Origin: Escherichia phage 236Ecol005PP
DNA: 64,000 nt
Strand: one strand, 5' to 3'
Sequence record: PP434423.1
Below are positions 56,701 through 64,000 of the stretch, piece after piece (within the stretch, counting starts at the first letter, position 1; every line of letters begins with the position of its first letter). The notes beneath the pieces are model-generated. The model saw only the letters and a list, made by a program, of their open reading frames with translations. It was not told the DNA's origin and ran no database searches. Made by a program: the position numbers and the translations under genes.

Positions 56701-58752
56701 TTATCCTTGAACGAACTTGTAAGGCATGTTTGCAATATCTATGCAAGACGCAATAATTCCAAGAGATGATTCTGCTTTCTGTTTAACATTTGATGAAACA
56801 AACGATGCAAAGTCAACTCTATCTTCTATATCACCTGTCATTGTAACCAATTCACCAGTTTCCATTAAACGGTCACCGTCATAAATTACCGATTCGGTGA
56901 GTTCTTCTGTGGTCATAACTTCAGCTTGAATAAGCTTGTTGTTAGTTCTAACTGTTCCATCGTTGTAAGATGCATCAGTTATTTTATTAACTTTGACCAT
57001 TAATCCACGTGGCAAAATGACTTCCATTTCATTTGAAGGCGCTAAACTTCCACCGGGTAAAACAACATTGACTTTATCAGCCCCAGTAATAACCCATCCA
57101 ATTCCAACTAAATTATCGCTAGAATTTACAAGTCCTTCATCAGTTTTATCAATAGAAACACTTAAACGCTTTTCGTCTGGTAAAACACCCACAGATGAAT
57201 CAGTCATCCAAGTACCAAAAATATTTGGATATAATGATGTTGACACAAAGTTTCTAAAATAAAAAACTCGATTTTTTACCATTGCTTCGTATATTGAAGG
57301 TAACATTCGTTGTGAACGATACAAAGTAATACCTTTTGGTAATCGTTCACCATTTTTAAAGGCTGAATCTAAATTATCAATGGCTTGTTCTATTTCAGGT
57401 GCTGTTAAAATACTTGTACGCTCATCTGGATTATATAATCCCAAAAGAGCATTATTCATGTCTACATATCCTGAACCTACATATTCACGAATTCCGCGTT
57501 TTTGCGCTGGTGTGTATTTAGATGAATCTTTATTTTCGACTATAGGATGTAATGACCATCCAGCGGTAAGAGCATATCCACGTAATTCTCTTCGAATAAT
57601 CTTTGTTTTTATTGCATTCCAAGAATTTTGTACTAACTCATTTGCAGCATCTTGGTTTAAATGCGAATGTCTGTTAATATTTCTTTCAAACCAAGCACCT
57701 TTATATTTTTCTAAAGTATCATCGACGATAGAAGCAATAGTTTCTAAAGTTTTTATTGAAGTAATAGATTCTTTTCGTAATTTTTCTAAAGCTTTATTTT
57801 TTATTTCTGCATTAATAATGGATTCTTTATCTTCAGGAATTATAGAAGCTTCTCTGAATGCCATCCCAGCTGTAACACTGCTAAGAGCATTCTCTAATGC
57901 AAATCCTGAAGTAGAAATAACAGTTAATTCGTTAGCATCAGAAATTAAAGGCGCGTCGGCGGGTTTATTTAATTCTGCTGCTGAAGCCTCAAATTTTTGA
58001 AACATTGGTGTTTCAAATCTAGAAGATTCCAATGACTGACTTTGTGCAATTGCTCTACGGGAAATTTTAACTTTAACAATAACAGCTTGGTCAGAACGTT
58101 TATCATTTTCTTGCGCAATAGATGCAGCAATTGCCTCATTTTTAGTTACTTGAGCTCCAGTATCTTTATTGATATAAACATCACCGACCTTCGATTCAAC
58201 TTTAGTAAAGAGCTCGGTGCTAATTTCCGGAACTCCTGGAATGTCTTCTAGTGATACATTTTTGCGATGTATAAGAATATATGCATACTTTTTATCGTAA
58301 TCCCAGAGTTCCTTAAGAAGGACGTATCTGCCACCTGAACGACTGCGGATAAGTCTATCAGCAATAACTTGAATTTGTCGAGCTTGACCAGCAGTTTTAG
58401 ACTTAAGAATACGAAGCATGCAGGCATCAATTTTATACTGACGCATCGTTTGCATCGCAACAGTAAAAACTGAATTGATGTAATTAATTGGGCTTGGACC
58501 GAGACCTTTTAATTTAGCAATTGAACCTTTAGCAGTTAATGTAAAAGGAACGATGTGCATCATTTTATCGCCCATCTTTAAATCACGGTTAGTATCACCT
58601 CCAGATGTATAAGTACATAAACGAAAGCCTGGTTGTTCTATTGCGTCATCAACATGAACTGAAAAAATTTGTGGTATTTTCTTCTTTGGATACAAATTTG
58701 TAATCGGAAGAGTAGTATTTTCGTCAAATAATTCTGTAATAAGTTCCATCAT
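56701..58752 (-). CDS. alt: Alt ADP-ribosyltransferase (virion-packaged)
   Basis: 683 aa; position between 54 and 30 and length as T4 Alt; two adjacent ATG starts. Confidence 0.85.
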   Translation of the reverse strand: MMELITELFDENTTLPITNLYPKKKIPQIFSVHVDDAIEQPGFRLCTYTSGGDTNRDLKMGDKMMHIVPFTLTAKGSIAKLKGLGPSPINYINSVFTVAMQTMRQYKIDACMLRILKSKTAGQARQIQVIADRLIRSRSGGRYVLLKELWDYDKKYAYILIHRKNVSLEDIPGVPEISTELFTKVESKVGDVYINKDTGAQVTKNEAIAASIAQENDKRSDQAVIVKVKISRRAIAQSQSLESSRFETPMFQKFEASAAELNKPADAPLISDANELTVISTSGFALENALSSVTAGMAFREASIIPEDKESIINAEIKNKALEKLRKESITSIKTLETIASIVDDTLEKYKGAWFERNINRHSHLNQDAANELVQNSWNAIKTKIIRRELRGYALTAGWSLHPIVENKDSSKYTPAQKRGIREYVGSGYVDMNNALLGLYNPDERTSILTAPEIEQAIDNLDSAFKNGERLPKGITLYRSQRMLPSIYEAMVKNRVFYFRNFVSTSLYPNIFGTWMTDSSVGVLPDEKRLSVSIDKTDEGLVNSSDNLVGIGWVITGADKVNVVLPGGSLAPSNEMEVILPRGLMVKVNKITDASYNDGTVRTNNKLIQAEVMTTEELTESVIYDGDRLMETGELVTMTGDIEDRVDFASFVSSNVKQKAESSLGIIASCIDIANMPYKFVQG

Positions 58753-58772
58753 ATCCTCTCTAGTGTTTATTC

Positions 58773-58780
58773 TATTTATA
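58773..58780 (-). promoter_or_regulatory. late promoter TATAAATA upstream of alt
   Basis: minus TATAAATA 21 nt upstream of alt ATG. Confidence 0.55.
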
Positions 58781-58786
58781 AAATTA

Positions 58787-58803
58787 AAGGCCCGAAGGCC
58801 TTT
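58787..58803 (-). terminator. hairpin AAGGCCTTCGGGCCTT between gene 30 operon and alt
   Basis: GC stem with TTCG loop overlapping the stop of ORF 58802-58990. Confidence 0.4.
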
Positions 58804-58990
58804 AATAATCTAATGGTAAGAGAGTACGATATATTTCAAACTTTGGCCCTTTTTCATAGGCATCAAATGTTTCTGAAAATTTATTATAAGCATATGCATC
58901 TACAAATTCGAGAATGATTTGTGATACAGAAGTAGAAACATCTCCACCTTCTTTTTGAGCAATGACAATTGTTTCTAAGTAAGCTTTCAT
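58802..58990 (-). CDS. hypothetical protein, 62 aa, translationally coupled to ligase
   Basis: ATG overlaps gene 30 stop (ATGA). Confidence 0.55.
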   Translation of the reverse strand: MKAYLETIVIAQKEGGDVSTSVSQIILEFVDAYAYNKFSETFDAYEKGPKFEIYRTLLPLDY

Positions 58991-60450
58991 AGACCAGTTA
59001 CCTCATGAAAATCGCCAAATACATCCTCGAATGTATTAGCTTTAGTTTTATCTTCACGTAAACGAATCGCAATCGGAAGAAATAATTTAACGTAATCAGT
59101 GCGGCCATCAGATTTTAACCAACCATTGCATTCGCACTCTAGAATTTTTCCAATATAATAATTTTGGTTTTCCATAATGCGAGTACGGTCAAGTTCATGC
59201 GATTTTACACCGGCTTTATCTTTTAAGCCTGAACCAGCATTTACTTTAATTTTTCCACACTCTGACTCAAGAATAAATCCACCTGCTTTAGTAGGGTCTT
59301 TACGGTGAGGATAAATTCCTACAATTTTTAAATCAACATCAATTACTTCTTTAAATTTATAGAGATTTTTTGAACGAGCATTTTCCCATAATCCATCGAT
59401 ATTTTTGAGAATAATACCTTCAAGACCTTGGTCAATATACTTTTTATAAATTACCTTAGCTTCATCTAGGTTATTTACTACCTGGTTTTCAATTAAAATT
59501 ACTTTATCATAGCCTGATGTCATTTGTTCTAGTTTAGAAAAACGTACATCATATTTCAAACGAAATGCAGGAAGACCGTATATTTCTACCAACGGGACAT
59601 AATCCCAGACCTGAAACTTCATGCATTGAGCTTCTTTTTCAGAAATGGTTCCCTTTAAAGATTTATTGGCGATGCCATTAGATGCAGTACGTGATTCAGC
59701 TACTTCTGTGAAGTCTTTAACTTTGCTGTTTTCAGGATGAGCATCAAAAAGAAAATCTAGGCCTTCTGGCTCCTTTTTAACTTGCTCATGGTATACCAAT
59801 TCGCCATCAATTAACACACCTTCTGGATGAATCTGGCGGGCTTCAGCAGTCATTTTGATTAACTCTTCCTTAAGAAGATCTAATCCTAGATATTCATTAC
59901 CGGCTCGTGATAAAAGACGAACATCATCTAATTCATCACCTCGGACTTCAGCAAAACACCGAGCTCCATCTGCTTTTAACTGTGCAAAGGCTGGAAACTT
60001 AATATTCTTATTAATGCCTTTTTCATCATAAGAACTTGCCAGCATTTGAGGTTGTTCAGGAATTAAACCTGACCAAACTTTGTTTGCAATAGATACTGAA
60101 GCACCGCATTCAAGGTCTCGCATCATAACTCGACGCAAAACTTCAACATCATTCTTTTTACCATCAGTGATATATCCAGTCAATTCCTCAATTGCAGCAT
60201 TTCCAGTCAATTTCCGAGTAGCTAATGTGAATTCAATGAAGTCAAGCATATCGGTAAGAGTCAACATTCCAAAACTCTGGGTAGTAATACCAGGTTTAGG
60301 CCATTTCTTGATATAATACTGCAACCCACGAGAATAAGTCAGACGATATACTCGTTTAAGCAATTCATTATCTTTATTCTTTTCAAGAATTGCTTGCTTC
60401 TGCTTAGTTGAACCAATAGATGCTATTTCGTTCAGAATTTTAAGAATCAT
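58987..60450 (-). CDS. 30: ATP-dependent DNA ligase
   Basis: MILKILNEIASIGSTKQKQAILEKNKDNELLKRVYRL... and KADG motif; 487 aa, T4 DNA ligase. Confidence 0.97.
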   Translation of the reverse strand: MILKILNEIASIGSTKQKQAILEKNKDNELLKRVYRLTYSRGLQYYIKKWPKPGITTQSFGMLTLTDMLDFIEFTLATRKLTGNAAIEELTGYITDGKKNDVEVLRRVMMRDLECGASVSIANKVWSGLIPEQPQMLASSYDEKGINKNIKFPAFAQLKADGARCFAEVRGDELDDVRLLSRAGNEYLGLDLLKEELIKMTAEARQIHPEGVLIDGELVYHEQVKKEPEGLDFLFDAHPENSKVKDFTEVAESRTASNGIANKSLKGTISEKEAQCMKFQVWDYVPLVEIYGLPAFRLKYDVRFSKLEQMTSGYDKVILIENQVVNNLDEAKVIYKKYIDQGLEGIILKNIDGLWENARSKNLYKFKEVIDVDLKIVGIYPHRKDPTKAGGFILESECGKIKVNAGSGLKDKAGVKSHELDRTRIMENQNYYIGKILECECNGWLKSDGRTDYVKLFLPIAIRLREDKTKANTFEDVFGDFHEVTGL

Positions 60451-60716
60451 TATTCATCCTTCAGAGTTTGGTTTACAGCTCTATTATAAATCAATTCATC
60501 ATTAAGCTCAGTCAAAGACTTATGATATGTGGTTCTAACTTTATTTCCTTGCATCCAGTGCTTGATATAAATGAAACCTTGCTCTACACATTTTTTAAAA
60601 ATTCGTTCGTCTTTTTGAGCTCGGAACTCTGGATTGCATCTAAAAAATTGATTTACGTGACCGTAATCACGTGTAGTATTACCTTCATTTTCATAAATAG
60701 TGTGAACAACAAACAT
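60450..60716 (-). CDS. hypothetical protein, 88 aa (first ORF upstream of ligase)
   Basis: ATG start; ATGA-type coupling. Confidence 0.6.
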   Translation of the reverse strand: MFVVHTIYENEGNTTRDYGHVNQFFRCNPEFRAQKDERIFKKCVEQGFIYIKHWMQGNKVRTTYHKSLTELNDELIYNRAVNQTLKDE

Positions 60717-61579
60717 TAGAATGCTCCTTGAAAAATATTATCACCACTAGTAAGTCTATTAAAATACCCTGCGTCGCCAGGCTTAATATAACTCCACGTG
60801 TGGAATGGATTCATATGATACGGGTGTGTATAATATGGATTATATGGATGTGTATAATATGGATGATATGGATTTAATCCAGGCGTTCTCCAGGTAGTGT
60901 TCCAAGGAAAAGAATCGTTTTTAACCATCTTCTCAATTACATCTTTTATAGCTTTTTCACTATCAAAACTTTCTTTATTTTCCTTTGGTGAAAAAAGCTT
61001 ATTCTCTACATCGTTCCATGTATAAACTCGCTGTGCAGTTTTTGGAATATTGTCACGCTCTCCTCGCGCCATCCAATAAACAGGAACATTTAATATTTCA
61101 TTCGCATGATCGCAATGGTGAGCAAGATCGTCAATATAACAAATTACGTTATATTTCTCTTTTGCCTTTTTGAATAACTCTTCTTTTGAAGAATCATGAC
61201 CACACATCATTACTTCTGAGAAGGCACCAGGAAAAAGAGCATTCAAATTAAATTGACGATTCAACAGAGCGTCAATAGAATCACCCAATGCTGTAACAGC
61301 TACAAAATTATAATCTTCTTTTAATTTGTTAATTACACACAGAGCATCTTTATACGGAGACAAGTAACGAATAAAATCTGAACGATTGTATTTTTCAATT
61401 AACTTGACGCCAAGTTCTTCATCACAATTAAATAGTTTACCTGGAGAAATAAATTTCTCATCTTGGATCATTTTTAAAATATGTTCTAACGGAAGATTAT
61501 ATTTCTGAGCAAAATAAGGAAGGCCTGATTGCCAGCTTAAACATACTCCATCAATATCAGTCAAAATAGTTGGCTTCAT
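60716..61579 (-). CDS. HAD-superfamily phosphatase (5-prime(3-prime)-deoxyribonucleotidase-like) with C-terminal Pro/Tyr/His repeat
   Basis: HAD motif I LTDIDGV near N-terminus; C-terminal NPYHPYYTHPYNPYYTHPYH. Confidence 0.7.
   Translation of the reverse strand: MKPTILTDIDGVCLSWQSGLPYFAQKYNLPLEHILKMIQDEKFISPGKLFNCDEELGVKLIEKYNRSDFIRYLSPYKDALCVINKLKEDYNFVAVTALGDSIDALLNRQFNLNALFPGAFSEVMMCGHDSSKEELFKKAKEKYNVICYIDDLAHHCDHANEILNVPVYWMARGERDNIPKTAQRVYTWNDVENKLFSPKENKESFDSEKAIKDVIEKMVKNDSFPWNTTWRTPGLNPYHPYYTHPYNPYYTHPYHMNPFHTWSYIKPGDAGYFNRLTSGDNIFQGAF
60825..60872 (-). repeat. 24-bp tandem direct repeat (x2) inside the HAD-like gene
   Basis: gtgtataatatggattatatggat / gtgtataatatggatgatatggat, one mismatch. 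Confidence 0.8.
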
Positions 61580-62034
61580 AGAGAGTCTCTTAATAGGTTT
61601 AACACATCAATAAATTCAGCTTCGGTTAGTATTGTATCATCTTTTGTTAGACCACTAGCCATGCTGTGCTTCAAAACTTTTCCTTTCGAGGCTTGTAATG
61701 CATCGCGAAAGCCCTTGTTTTGGAACGCTGCTTCAAAATATGCATTTGTGTATAATTCTTTCCACGCCGGAGAGTATCTTGAAAACGGAACTCCAAGCCA
61801 AAAGAGGGTCCCACGGTCCTGAGCTCTAGCATAAGACCTTCCAGCTTGTTGGGCGGCAAGCCCGGATAACCCAAATATACGACGCTGTTGTTCAACATTT
61901 TTCACCTTGCATCCTTGGAGGAATCCTTCGAGACCTCCAAATTGAATACCATCCATAACGAAAGGCCATTGGGCGAAATTACTTAATGCGCATGATGGCC
62001 ATCTAAAATTGCTTCTTATCTCTAACTCAGACAT
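61576..62034 (-). CDS. NADAR (YbiA/DUF1768)-like protein, 152 aa
   Basis: SNFAQWPF..DG..F...EGFLQGCK resembles the NADAR core by eye; ATG 62034 (track start 62040 is TTG). Confidence 0.55.
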   Translation of the reverse strand: MSELEIRSNFRWPSCALSNFAQWPFVMDGIQFGGLEGFLQGCKVKNVEQQRRIFGLSGLAAQQAGRSYARAQDRGTLFWLGVPFSRYSPAWKELYTNAYFEAAFQNKGFRDALQASKGKVLKHSMASGLTKDDTILTEAEFIDVLNLLRDSL

Positions 62035-62233
62035 TTTCAATACTTATAATTTCAACATCAGCCCAATGACCATAGCAAGGAAGACGAAATTCAACTGGCC
62101 AGTTAGGGTCCTTTTCTAATATAATAGACTGAACTTGTGGCTCTTCATGTTCATCGGTATACGGACCTTTATACGTTACTTTATATGTGACCTTAATGTA
62201 CTGAATTCCAAAAATCTTATTAATTATATTCAT
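62027..62233 (-). CDS. hypothetical protein, 68 aa
   Basis: ATG start; overlapping-stop coupling. Confidence 0.55.
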   Translation of the reverse strand: MNIINKIFGIQYIKVTYKVTYKGPYTDEHEEPQVQSIILEKDPNWPVEFRLPCYGHWADVEIISIENV

Positions 62234-62427
62234 ATTAATTCCTTTAATCCATAGATAGGAGATAATTCATCACCCATACGAAGGTCTTCATTTCCATCTA
62301 CCCAGGAAACAATATAAGCCTCTTTTATTTGAATACCACTCCATTTAAATGGAGGTAGAACCTTAGAAATTAATCCAGGTATACCAACTCCCTTTAATTC
62401 AACAGTTTGACCCGAAAAGAATTTCAT
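62230..62427 (-). CDS. hypothetical protein, 65 aa
   Basis: ATG start; coupled. Confidence 0.55.
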   Translation of the reverse strand: MKFFSGQTVELKGVGIPGLISKVLPPFKWSGIQIKEAYIVSWVDGNEDLRMGDELSPIYGLKELI

Positions 62428-62714
62428 TAGAACCTCATCTGAAAACCATGCGATTTAACATTACCGCCGCCAATATCAGAAATGTTAATTTCGCGCGCAA
62501 TTGAAGGGTCAATGTCAATTTCACGATTGAGTTTAGTGATAGCTAAAGTATCGCGTCCATTTACAGTACGGAACTCTAAAGGGCAGACTACATTAACGTA
62601 GTTTTTAATCGATTCACTGATAGGTTGCAAATGAGCAGGAAGGTCTTTAGGTGCCTTAGAGAAAACCACTTCACAGAAATTTTTGCGGGTATCAAAATAA
62701 GTAGTCATAAACAT
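62427..62714 (-). CDS. hypothetical protein, 95 aa
   Basis: ATG start; coupled. Confidence 0.55.
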   Translation of the reverse strand: MFMTTYFDTRKNFCEVVFSKAPKDLPAHLQPISESIKNYVNVVCPLEFRTVNGRDTLAITKLNREIDIDPSIAREINISDIGGGNVKSHGFQMRF

Positions 62715-62731
62715 AGTATTTTCCTCAGTAA

Positions 62732-62745
62732 GGGGCCGAAGCCCC
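62732..62745. terminator. GC hairpin GGGGCCGAAGCCCC
   Basis: same GNRA-hairpin sequence as at 3523 and 43417. Confidence 0.35.
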
Positions 62746-62755
62746 TCATTTTATT

Positions 62756-63121
62756 TTAAATATCAAATTCGTTAAGAACTACATCAAAGATCGCTTCAAG
62801 ATGCTCAGGTTTAGCTCTGTTACTCAGAATATGACGAATCCAAGTTTTAACCAGAAGCTTACGATTGACGCCATTCCAGCAAGGATGAGTCCCTAAATCA
62901 CGTTGACGGAAATCATCATCTAATGCGATTTTAAAAGAAGAACCTTCTTTCGTGATTGAAACCGTGATGCCATTTTCAAATCGCATATAAACGTAATTAG
63001 GAGTCATATACTGTTCAATTTCGCATACTGATCCATTTTGATGTTTCCAAAGGCAGATAGTATCAATAGAACCTGCAATACCGTTAGAAACATATTTACG
63101 TTCAAAGTTGATGTAGTTCAT
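62756..63121 (-). CDS. hypothetical protein, 121 aa
   Basis: ATG start; early promoter upstream. Confidence 0.6.
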   Translation of the reverse strand: MNYINFERKYVSNGIAGSIDTICLWKHQNGSVCEIEQYMTPNYVYMRFENGITVSITKEGSSFKIALDDDFRQRDLGTHPCWNGVNRKLLVKTWIRHILSNRAKPEHLEAIFDVVLNEFDI

Positions 63122-63158
63122 TTTTATTCTCCGAGATGTTTAATTGCGGTACAGGTAT

Positions 63159-63187
63159 ATAATATCATATCCTGTACCAAAGTAAAC
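63159..63187 (-). promoter_or_regulatory. T4-type early promoter (-35 GTTTAC, -10 TATTAT) bracketed by inverted repeat GGTACAGG/CCTGTACC
   Basis: GTTTAC-N17-TATTAT; 8-bp inverted repeat arms at 63149-63156 and 63171-63178. Confidence 0.5.
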
Positions 63188-63189
63188 AA

Positions 63190-63522
63190 TTATTTTACTA
63201 CTTTCCATTGCTGCATGTCAAGTTTACCAACTTTTTTCATCTTCTCAATTAAGCGTTCGACACGTTGGCGAGCTGTAACATAATACCATTCACCCAATTC
63301 ATTTTGTTCAATTTTTCCAACGATTACTGTATTCAATTCATAAATCCAACCAGTAAAGAAATTATGAACTTGAATTGTAAAGGTGAAATCTGTTCCCATA
63401 CCTTCTGTTGTTTCTACTTCAATAATATCACCTTCAACTGCCATTAAGAACCACATAGTTTCATCATATTTACCATTGAAGCATTTAATTTTAACTGTAG
63501 CGTTCAGATTAATCGTTTTCAT
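63190..63522 (-). CDS. hypothetical protein, 110 aa
   Basis: ATG with AAGGAG RBS. Confidence 0.65.
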   Translation of the reverse strand: MKTINLNATVKIKCFNGKYDETMWFLMAVEGDIIEVETTEGMGTDFTFTIQVHNFFTGWIYELNTVIVGKIEQNELGEWYYVTARQRVERLIEKMKKVGKLDMQQWKVVK

Positions 63523-63550
63523 TTTATTCTCCTTTGTTTGTGTAAGATAA

Positions 63551-63579
63551 TACTATTACAAAGGAACCATACTGTAAAC
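63551..63579 (-). promoter_or_regulatory. T4-type early promoter (-35 GTTTAC, -10 TAGTAT) bracketed by TGTAA/TTACA
   Basis: GTTTAC-N18-TAGTAT on minus strand. Confidence 0.4.
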
Positions 63580-63597
63580 AACTTTGTGCAATCTTTG

Positions 63598-63627
63598 GAA
63601 AATAAAAAAGGACTCCCGAAGGAGTCC
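63598..63627 (-). terminator. rho-independent terminator
   Basis: minus GGACUCCUUCGGGAGUCC followed by UUUUUUAUUUU. Confidence 0.7.
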
Positions 63628-63632
63628 TCAAC

Positions 63633-63809
63633 TTATGCTTTCTGCTTACCAAAACGAGAAGCATCATCTCGAAGAACCGCACGTGCTCGGCGCATGATCT
63701 TCTCAACAGTTTGATTGATACGAGAGTTCGACCCACGCTTGTAACCAGCGCGTTTAGAATCACCAACTTTCTTTTCAACTGCTTTCTTTGCTTTAGCTTG
63801 TTTTGCCAT
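63633..63809 (-). CDS. small highly basic protein, 58 aa
   Basis: ATG 63809 (M15 of track ORF 63633-63851); MAKQAKAKKAVEKK..., Lys/Arg-rich; terminator directly downstream. Confidence 0.5.
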   Translation of the reverse strand: MAKQAKAKKAVEKKVGDSKRAGYKRGSNSRINQTVEKIMRRARAVLRDDASRFGKQKA

Positions 63810-64000
63810 TATAAATTCTCTTTTAAATGAAAATGCAGGACTTATTGGCATTGCCTGCGCAAGCCCTCAAGGGGAACATAGGTTTTGGATATTTAACGAC
63901 AGGATAACCATAAACCCGTCATCATACCTTATAGCTCTTATCTGTTGCACACCGTTAGCTTAAAGGTTCCGGGTCCGATTTCTCGAGGATAAGATATATA

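Follow-up and report, generated by a model that had tools for sequence, protein, structure and literature searches.

An intact Tequatrovirus copy of T4 adfN (gene 30.3), encoding a NADAR-core protein that very probably counteracts DarTG1

The open reading frame on the minus strand at 61576-62034 of the window (the whole stretch of 64,000 nucleotides of phage DNA analysed here) has very probably been correctly identified as adfN (T4 gene 30.3) of a Tequatrovirus, coding for a NADAR-core enzyme that reverses the ADP-ribosylation of guanine as an anti-DarTG1 function. The function of AdfN is already known, having been reported in 2024-2025 for a protein that is essentially the same. AdfN illustrates clearly how a phage can take over an enzyme of the antitoxin type and use it to reverse the chemical damage that a host defence system inflicts on its DNA.

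The reading frame begins with an ATG at 62034, terminates with a TGA stop at 61576-61578 and codes for 152 residues. A TTG at 62040, two codons upstream, is an alternative start that would give a protein of 154 residues; the T4 annotation takes the ATG. At its ATG the gene shares 8 nt with the end of 30.4, which lies upstream, and its stop codon overlaps with the start codon of 30.2, downstream, in the sequence ATGA. The encoded protein has the same length as T4 gp30.3 and is identical to it at 150 of 152 residues (99%). Both differences, I104F and I125M, are conservative and fall in variable columns of an alignment of 52 diverse homologs, whose identities to the window protein span 34-87% and are mostly 35-45%. 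Methionine is the consensus residue of this family at position 125. A protein 100% identical to the AdfN of the window is encoded by phage phiC600P9, 67 phage records carry a protein that is at least 99% identical, and homologs of gp30.3 are encoded in 1510 phage records from many host genera.

The genomic surroundings are likewise those of T4. The 2.4 kb around adfN match 684 phage records with a best identity of 98.3%, and almost all of these records belong to T4-like phages of Escherichia, Shigella and Yersinia, Tequatrovirus included. On this strand the genes follow one another as in T4, namely alt, alt.1, 30 (DNA ligase), 30.1, 30.2, 30.3, 30.4 and so on to 30.8, and comparison with the annotated T4 genome reveals that the products of alt, alt.1, 30, 30.1, 30.2 and 30.4-30.8 are 90-99% identical to their T4 counterparts. 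As in T4, adfN is situated between rIII and 30, in a dense run of same-strand genes upstream of the ligase gene. The original prediction had described a HAD phosphatase gene adjacent to the NADAR candidate and alt in the vicinity, and this description was accurate: 30.2 follows directly downstream and alt lies about 2.8 kb further on, both on the same strand (Table 1).

Table 1. Positions of adfN, its functionally relevant codons and the neighbouring genes discussed in the text
Feature	Position in the window	Strand	Description
adfN (T4 gene 30.3) CDS	61576..62034	-	152 aa + TGA stop; stand-alone NADAR-core domain
Codons S18-N19-F20	61975..61983	-	N-terminal NADAR 'SNF' motif; 52/52; aligns to FSNF of E. 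coli YbiA
Codon E36 (GAA)	61927..61929	-	catalytic Glu of the EGFLQ motif; 52/52; aligns to the E of YbiA 'SEHYFQ'
Codon K43 (AAG)	61906..61908	-	phosphate-coordinating Lys; 51/52
Codon H123 (CAC)	61666..61668	-	stands in place of Glu (YbiA type) or Asp (DarG1 type) in the last strand; 52/52
C-terminal alpha-helix, residues 138-151	61582..61623	-	AlphaFold2 model, predicted with high confidence; intact here
Gene 30.2	60716..61579	-	HAD-fold, 5'(3')-deoxyribonucleotidase-like core (residues 1-200) and disordered repeat tail
alt	56701..58752	same strand as adfN	about 2.8 kb further on from adfN

The starts and stops of seven consecutive genes, 30.6, 30.5, 30.4, 30.3, 30.2, 30.1 and 30 (58987..62714, minus strand), abut or overlap by 1-8 nt, and this suggests that the run constitutes one translationally coupled unit. 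The only terminator-like match on the minus strand within the run is weak and lies inside 30.6 (62467..62450); a terminator-like hairpin is also found at 63629..63608 and a promoter-like match (11/12) at 63221..63192, both on the minus strand. A promoter scan of the region 58700..64000 returned 23 promoter-like sites as against 20.7 +/- 4.9 in shuffled sequence. There is no excess over chance, and the transcription unit is therefore not definable from the consensus alone.

An ORF of 75 residues is located inside adfN in the +1 frame (61671..61898, minus strand) and corresponds to the reading frame annotated in T4 as 30.3' ('internal translation in a different reading frame'). Of the 14 relatives with more than 80% identity, 13 keep this frame open over 76 codons, although the sequence it encodes drifts. 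In distant homologs the frame is not open and has a median open stretch of 45 codons.

The window protein matches the Pfam family PF08010 (Phage_30_3) over the entire profile (positions 1-138 of 138) with an E-value of 8.6e-70 and a score of 233.4 bits, the curated cut-off being 36. A search against PF08719, the NADAR family, had been suggested as a check with the original prediction and failed for the window protein itself, with no match at E<=1 in the Pfam search; the NCBIfam and PADLOC searches of the protein gave no match either, and phmmer of the single sequence against the sequences of the PDB gave no meaningful one. Since there is no direct match to the NADAR profile, the membership rests on profile-level and structural evidence. 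PF08719 is matched by 23 of the 52 family members, with a best E-value of 1.5e-7. The profile of the family recovers E. coli YbiA (2B3W) from the PDB at an E-value of 0.0058, and alignment of the family profile with YbiA by hhalign gives a probability of 93.7% and an E-value of 1.8e-7 over residues 15-122. The failure of PF08719 on the window protein reflects divergence of the T-even branch and not missing homology.

An AlphaFold2 model of AdfN, built on the 52-member alignment, has a pLDDT of 93.9 and a pTM of 0.89. The predicted structure is of the YbiA-type alpha+beta fold, a helical core flanked by small beta-hairpins, and the top three Foldseek matches to the model are the three solved NADAR structures. 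Structure prediction with comparison of the active site, another suggested check, thus spoke for the assignment, with both E36 and K43 present. The matches of family members to PF08719, the alignment with YbiA, the Foldseek result and the catalytic residues together uphold the NADAR-type identity first read from the motifs.

The motifs of the window protein are S18-N19-F20, W23-P24-F25, D28-G29, F32 and E36-GFLQGCK-43. All the elements quoted in the original prediction are therefore present and only its spacings need correction, the real arrangement being SNF-x2-WPF-x2-DG-x2-F in place of SNF-x-WPF-x3-DG-x-F. The SNF motif, E36, G37, F38, Q40 and H123 are invariant in the 52-sequence alignment; with the PF08010 match and the 1510 records that encode homologs, this puts the observation well above anything chance would produce. 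E36 and K43 align with E48 and K55 of YbiA, preserving an E-x6-K arrangement, and the spacing of 7 between the two is the same as in PnNADAR (E43/K50) and in DarG1 of E. coli C7 (E88/K95). The hhalign alignment stops at K122, paired with V124 of YbiA, and an extension by one residue puts H123 opposite YbiA E125. H123 is a hallmark of the phage gp30.3 clade, and the replacement of Glu by His has been published as a hallmark of phage NADARs (PMC11543638, PMC11125620).

The importance of these residues is known from T4 AdfN, where E36A abolishes de-ADP-ribosylation in vitro and K43A weakens the protein (PMC11825919). The C-terminal helix also matters. The allele of RB69 has lost it by a frameshift and is non-functional, RB69 being sensitive to DarTG1, and a truncated T4 adfN allele has reduced activity (PMC11825919). 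The reading frame of the window runs through to residue 152 as in T4, and the helix is kept. Given its identity to T4 adfN, its NADAR fold and the integrity of both the catalytic set and the C-terminal helix, the window allele (I104F, I125M) would be expected from its sequence to act like T4 AdfN, and with such an intact, near-T4 allele the phage should resist DarTG1.

Many homologs with more than 80% identity are truncated or fused, with lengths of 83-154 residues and a query coverage of 26-83% (clusters P0004-P0007, P0013-P0018, P0021, P0056 and P0096). This suggests that broken adfN alleles similar to that of RB69 recur among T-even phages; some of them may be artefacts of assembly or gene calling.

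T4 gene 30.3 has been renamed adfN, for anti-DarT factor NADAR (Johannesman et al. Nat Commun 2025; PMC11825919). The gene was mapped in the same study with chimeric phages, recombinants of T-even phages that resist DarTG1 with others that are sensitive to it. [quoted passage not shown] Purified T4 AdfN takes ADP-ribose off DNA modified by DarT1, the E36A variant fails to do so, and the protein does not bind DarT1 (PMC11825919). With respect to specificity, T4 gp30.3 hydrolyses ADP-ribosylated guanine (G-ADPr) and not T-ADPr (PMC11125620; Toxins 2024), is inactive on C-ADPr (PMC12945103), and acts on G-ADPr in RNA less efficiently than DarG1 (PMC11833690). In a transposon screen of T4, insertions in 30.3 were lost specifically on DarTG1 hosts, and the gene is non-essential on K-12 (bioRxiv 10.1101/2025.11.20.689424). 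Counter-defence against DarT-like toxins, which had been proposed for the window gene from its sequence, has in this way been demonstrated for a protein 99% identical to it (PMC11825919, PMC11125620, bioRxiv 10.1101/2025.11.20.689424).

On this basis the following course of events is proposed. During infection of a DarTG1 host, DarT1 ADP-ribosylates guanine (at N2) in the phage DNA and blocks replication. AdfN would bind the ADP-ribose moiety, with K43 coordinating the phosphate and with E36 and H123 placed around the distal ribose. Hydrolysis of the N-glycosidic bond between ribose and guanine would then free ADP-ribose and leave the DNA unmodified again, allowing the phage to replicate. AdfN would act here as an 'orphan antitoxin', with no binding to the toxin.

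In uninfected E. coli, however, T4 AdfN fails to relieve the toxicity of DarT1, and non-T-even phages are protected by it only partly. Because of these two observations an additional T-even factor has been proposed in the literature. The picture in which the enzyme alone is enough is incomplete, and the range of natural substrates could be wider.

The practical value of the present assignment is one of annotation, the gene being mostly still a 'hypothetical protein'. Among the matches listed, nearly all carry this label in GenBank despite the published function of AdfN, and the gp30.3 homolog of Klebsiella phage phi1_146015 (L011, 5007..5447) is labelled 'virion RNA polymerase'.

According to one alternative explanation, the main natural substrate is something other than DNA modified by DarT1, for instance G-ADPr in RNA or tRNA produced by other toxins of the host, or adducts made by the phage ARTs Alt, ModA and ModB, with the anti-DarTG1 activity as one facet of a broader role. 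The reversal of G-ADPr on RNA in vitro by the T4 NADAR (PMC11833690) is consistent with this, and the co-expression of such proteins with ARTs in T4-like phages was noted by Iyer et al. The occurrence of homologs in so many phage records and host genera also seems wider than the known distribution of DarTG1 would require. Against these points, the activity on RNA is below that of DarG1, T-ADPr and C-ADPr are not attacked, and the only in vivo phenotype reported is specific for DarTG1, with a gene that is dispensable on K-12 and essential on DarTG1 hosts. We regard this alternative as improbable.

The original prediction had also suggested a module in which the NADAR protein would act with the HAD phosphatase and the product of alt. 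The product of 30.2 is a genuine HAD protein by sequence and fold and resembles the deoxyribonucleotidases. The HAD motif residues D8xD10, K132 and D150-D151 are invariant among 40 homologs and T96 of motif II is nearly so, and the four motifs are carried on a Rossmann-like core with a cap, as expected of the HAD superfamily. A Pfam search of gp30.2 gave no match reaching the threshold. The profile of its family shows a weak similarity to the mouse 5'(3')-deoxyribonucleotidase 2JAO (E-value 0.015). The AlphaFold2 model of the core (residues 1-200) has a pLDDT above 90 and gives 114 Foldseek matches in the PDB at E<=0.001; the best 50 of the 114 are HAD-type hydrolases and include the deoxyribonucleotidases 2JAO, 2I7D and 3BWV.

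The 3' end of 30.2 contains a 24-nt tandem repeat (60815..60873; 2.5 copies, 88% matches) that encodes PY(H/N)PYYTH repeats. The C-terminal 40-60 or so residues of gp30.2, in a tail rich in His, Pro and Tyr, are predicted to be disordered (pLDDT below 50 for residues 250-287). The protein has 287 residues here and 278 in T4, and the length of the tail varies between phages.

The linkage of 30.2 to the NADAR gene was analysed in 89 loci, comprising 9 GenBank phages and 80 IMG/VR sequences, in the flanks within 4-5 kb of the NADAR gene. A homolog of 30.2 is found in 25 of them and is almost always accompanied by ligase 30, so that the linkage is attributed to inherited T4 synteny. The 64 remaining loci are devoid of a 30.2 homolog; two of these (L007 and L033) have kept the ligase alone and the others have neither the ligase nor alt nearby. 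In Krischvirus Phi1, 30.3 directly abuts 30 and 30.2 is missing. A Pfam scan of the genes directly adjacent, on the same strand, to 67 distinct distant NADAR homologs (129 neighbours) found none of the HAD, ART, Macro and Nudix families in the 25 most frequent families, the commonest being SF1 helicase (5) and PD-(D/E)XK nuclease (3).

A conserved NADAR-HAD-Alt module was accordingly rejected, as the linkage follows the T4 synteny block from rIII to the ligase and is gone elsewhere, with no recurrent partner. The proximity of adfN to alt is best read as synteny. Among loci L003-L091, an Acb1 anti-CBASS protein (PF23474, E-value 6e-56) is encoded directly beside one NADAR homolog, which hints that in some phages the NADAR gene sits in a cluster of counter-defence genes.

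It may still be considered whether gp30.2, the packaged ART Alt, or both work together with the NADAR protein, either potentiating AdfN or processing the products it releases. The overlap of the adfN stop with the 30.2 start suggests translational coupling, gp30.2 has all the catalytic motifs of its superfamily, and the additional T-even factor posited in the literature for full AdfN activity would have a place for such a partner. At locus L059 a 30.2-like gene is present nearby and the ligase is not. In Vibrio phage PG216 (L006, 5007..5961), an NT5C-family HAD gene (PF06941, E-value 5e-11) directly follows and overlaps the NADAR gene, in a neighbourhood (gp55/gp47/gp46) unlike that of T4. This gene was tried as an ortholog of gp30.2 and rejected, because the BLASTP match (E-value 0.004) is confined to the region of the DxD motif; the two are unrelated and lie in different genomic contexts. 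On the other side stand the 25 of 89 loci with their pattern of inherited synteny, the arrangement in Krischvirus Phi1 and the neighbours of the distant homologs. In addition, 30.3 is described in the main text of the article on the transposon screen of T4 on DarTG1 hosts and 30.2 is not mentioned there (bioRxiv 10.1101/2025.11.20.689424), and Alt modifies arginines of proteins, whereas the NADAR activity tested is specific for guanine. Cooperation of this kind appears very unlikely.

A narrower form, in which gp30.2 would be a T-even-specific helper that localises or stabilises AdfN or disposes of the released ADP-ribose or nucleotide products, is highly unlikely. If it were true, the adjacency of NADAR and NT5C genes in PG216 would be convergent evidence for a partnership between NADARs and nucleotidases. 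The comparative analysis narrows the search for a helper of AdfN, in that it argues against an obvious partner among conserved neighbouring genes. In our reading adfN stands alone as a counter-defence gene, and the idea of a module is unsupported.

The possibility that the protein is a YbiA-like housekeeping N-glycosidase, clearing intermediates of the riboflavin pathway or ribosyl-amine metabolites and not ADP-ribosylated DNA, is close to negligible: the riboflavin reading offered earlier belongs to the YbiA branch, whose defining last-strand Glu is an invariant His in the gp30.3 clade, the T4 ortholog has a demonstrated G-ADPr hydrolase activity on DNA and a DarTG1-specific phenotype, and no riboflavin genes occur near adfN in the window annotation or the comparison with T4.

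With AdfN as the preferred identification, the closest known system is T4 AdfN itself, with which the window protein shares its neighbours and position, E36, K43 and H123 and the C-terminal helix, differing by I104F and I125M. YbiA of E. coli (2B3W; PF08719) is about 20% identical and has Glu125 where the phage clade has His123. It is a housekeeping N-glycosidase of riboflavin intermediates encoded in a LexA-controlled operon.

DarG1, the DarT1-associated NADAR antitoxin of the BC4488 family, represented by the G. lovleyi structure 8BAT and the NADAR of E. coli C7, has an N-terminal extension of two beta-sheets and a helix that the phage protein lacks, and 8BAT (219 residues) aligns with the 152-residue phage protein, which is a bare core, over only 134 residues. 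The last strand of DarG1 provides a catalytic Asp, whereas phage AdfN has His123 at this place. Unlike DarG1, AdfN is not adjacent to a DarT gene, its neighbours being 30.4 and 30.2 with no system found by PADLOC, and T4 AdfN differs further in its failure to relieve DarT1 toxicity in uninfected cells.

The same role, neutralisation of DNA ADP-ribosylation of the DarT type, is served by AdfA (gp61.2), AdfM (the Tk.4 macrodomain), AdfN-Bas32 and AdfN-Bas60. AdfA binds DarT1 and has no catalysis, unlike AdfN. AdfM and the Bas NADARs are, like AdfN, enzymatic mimics of an antitoxin that occur as orphans; AdfM differs in being a macrodomain directed against DarTG2 and thymidine-ADPr, and the NADARs of Bas32 and Bas60 belong to other NADAR clades that were acquired independently.
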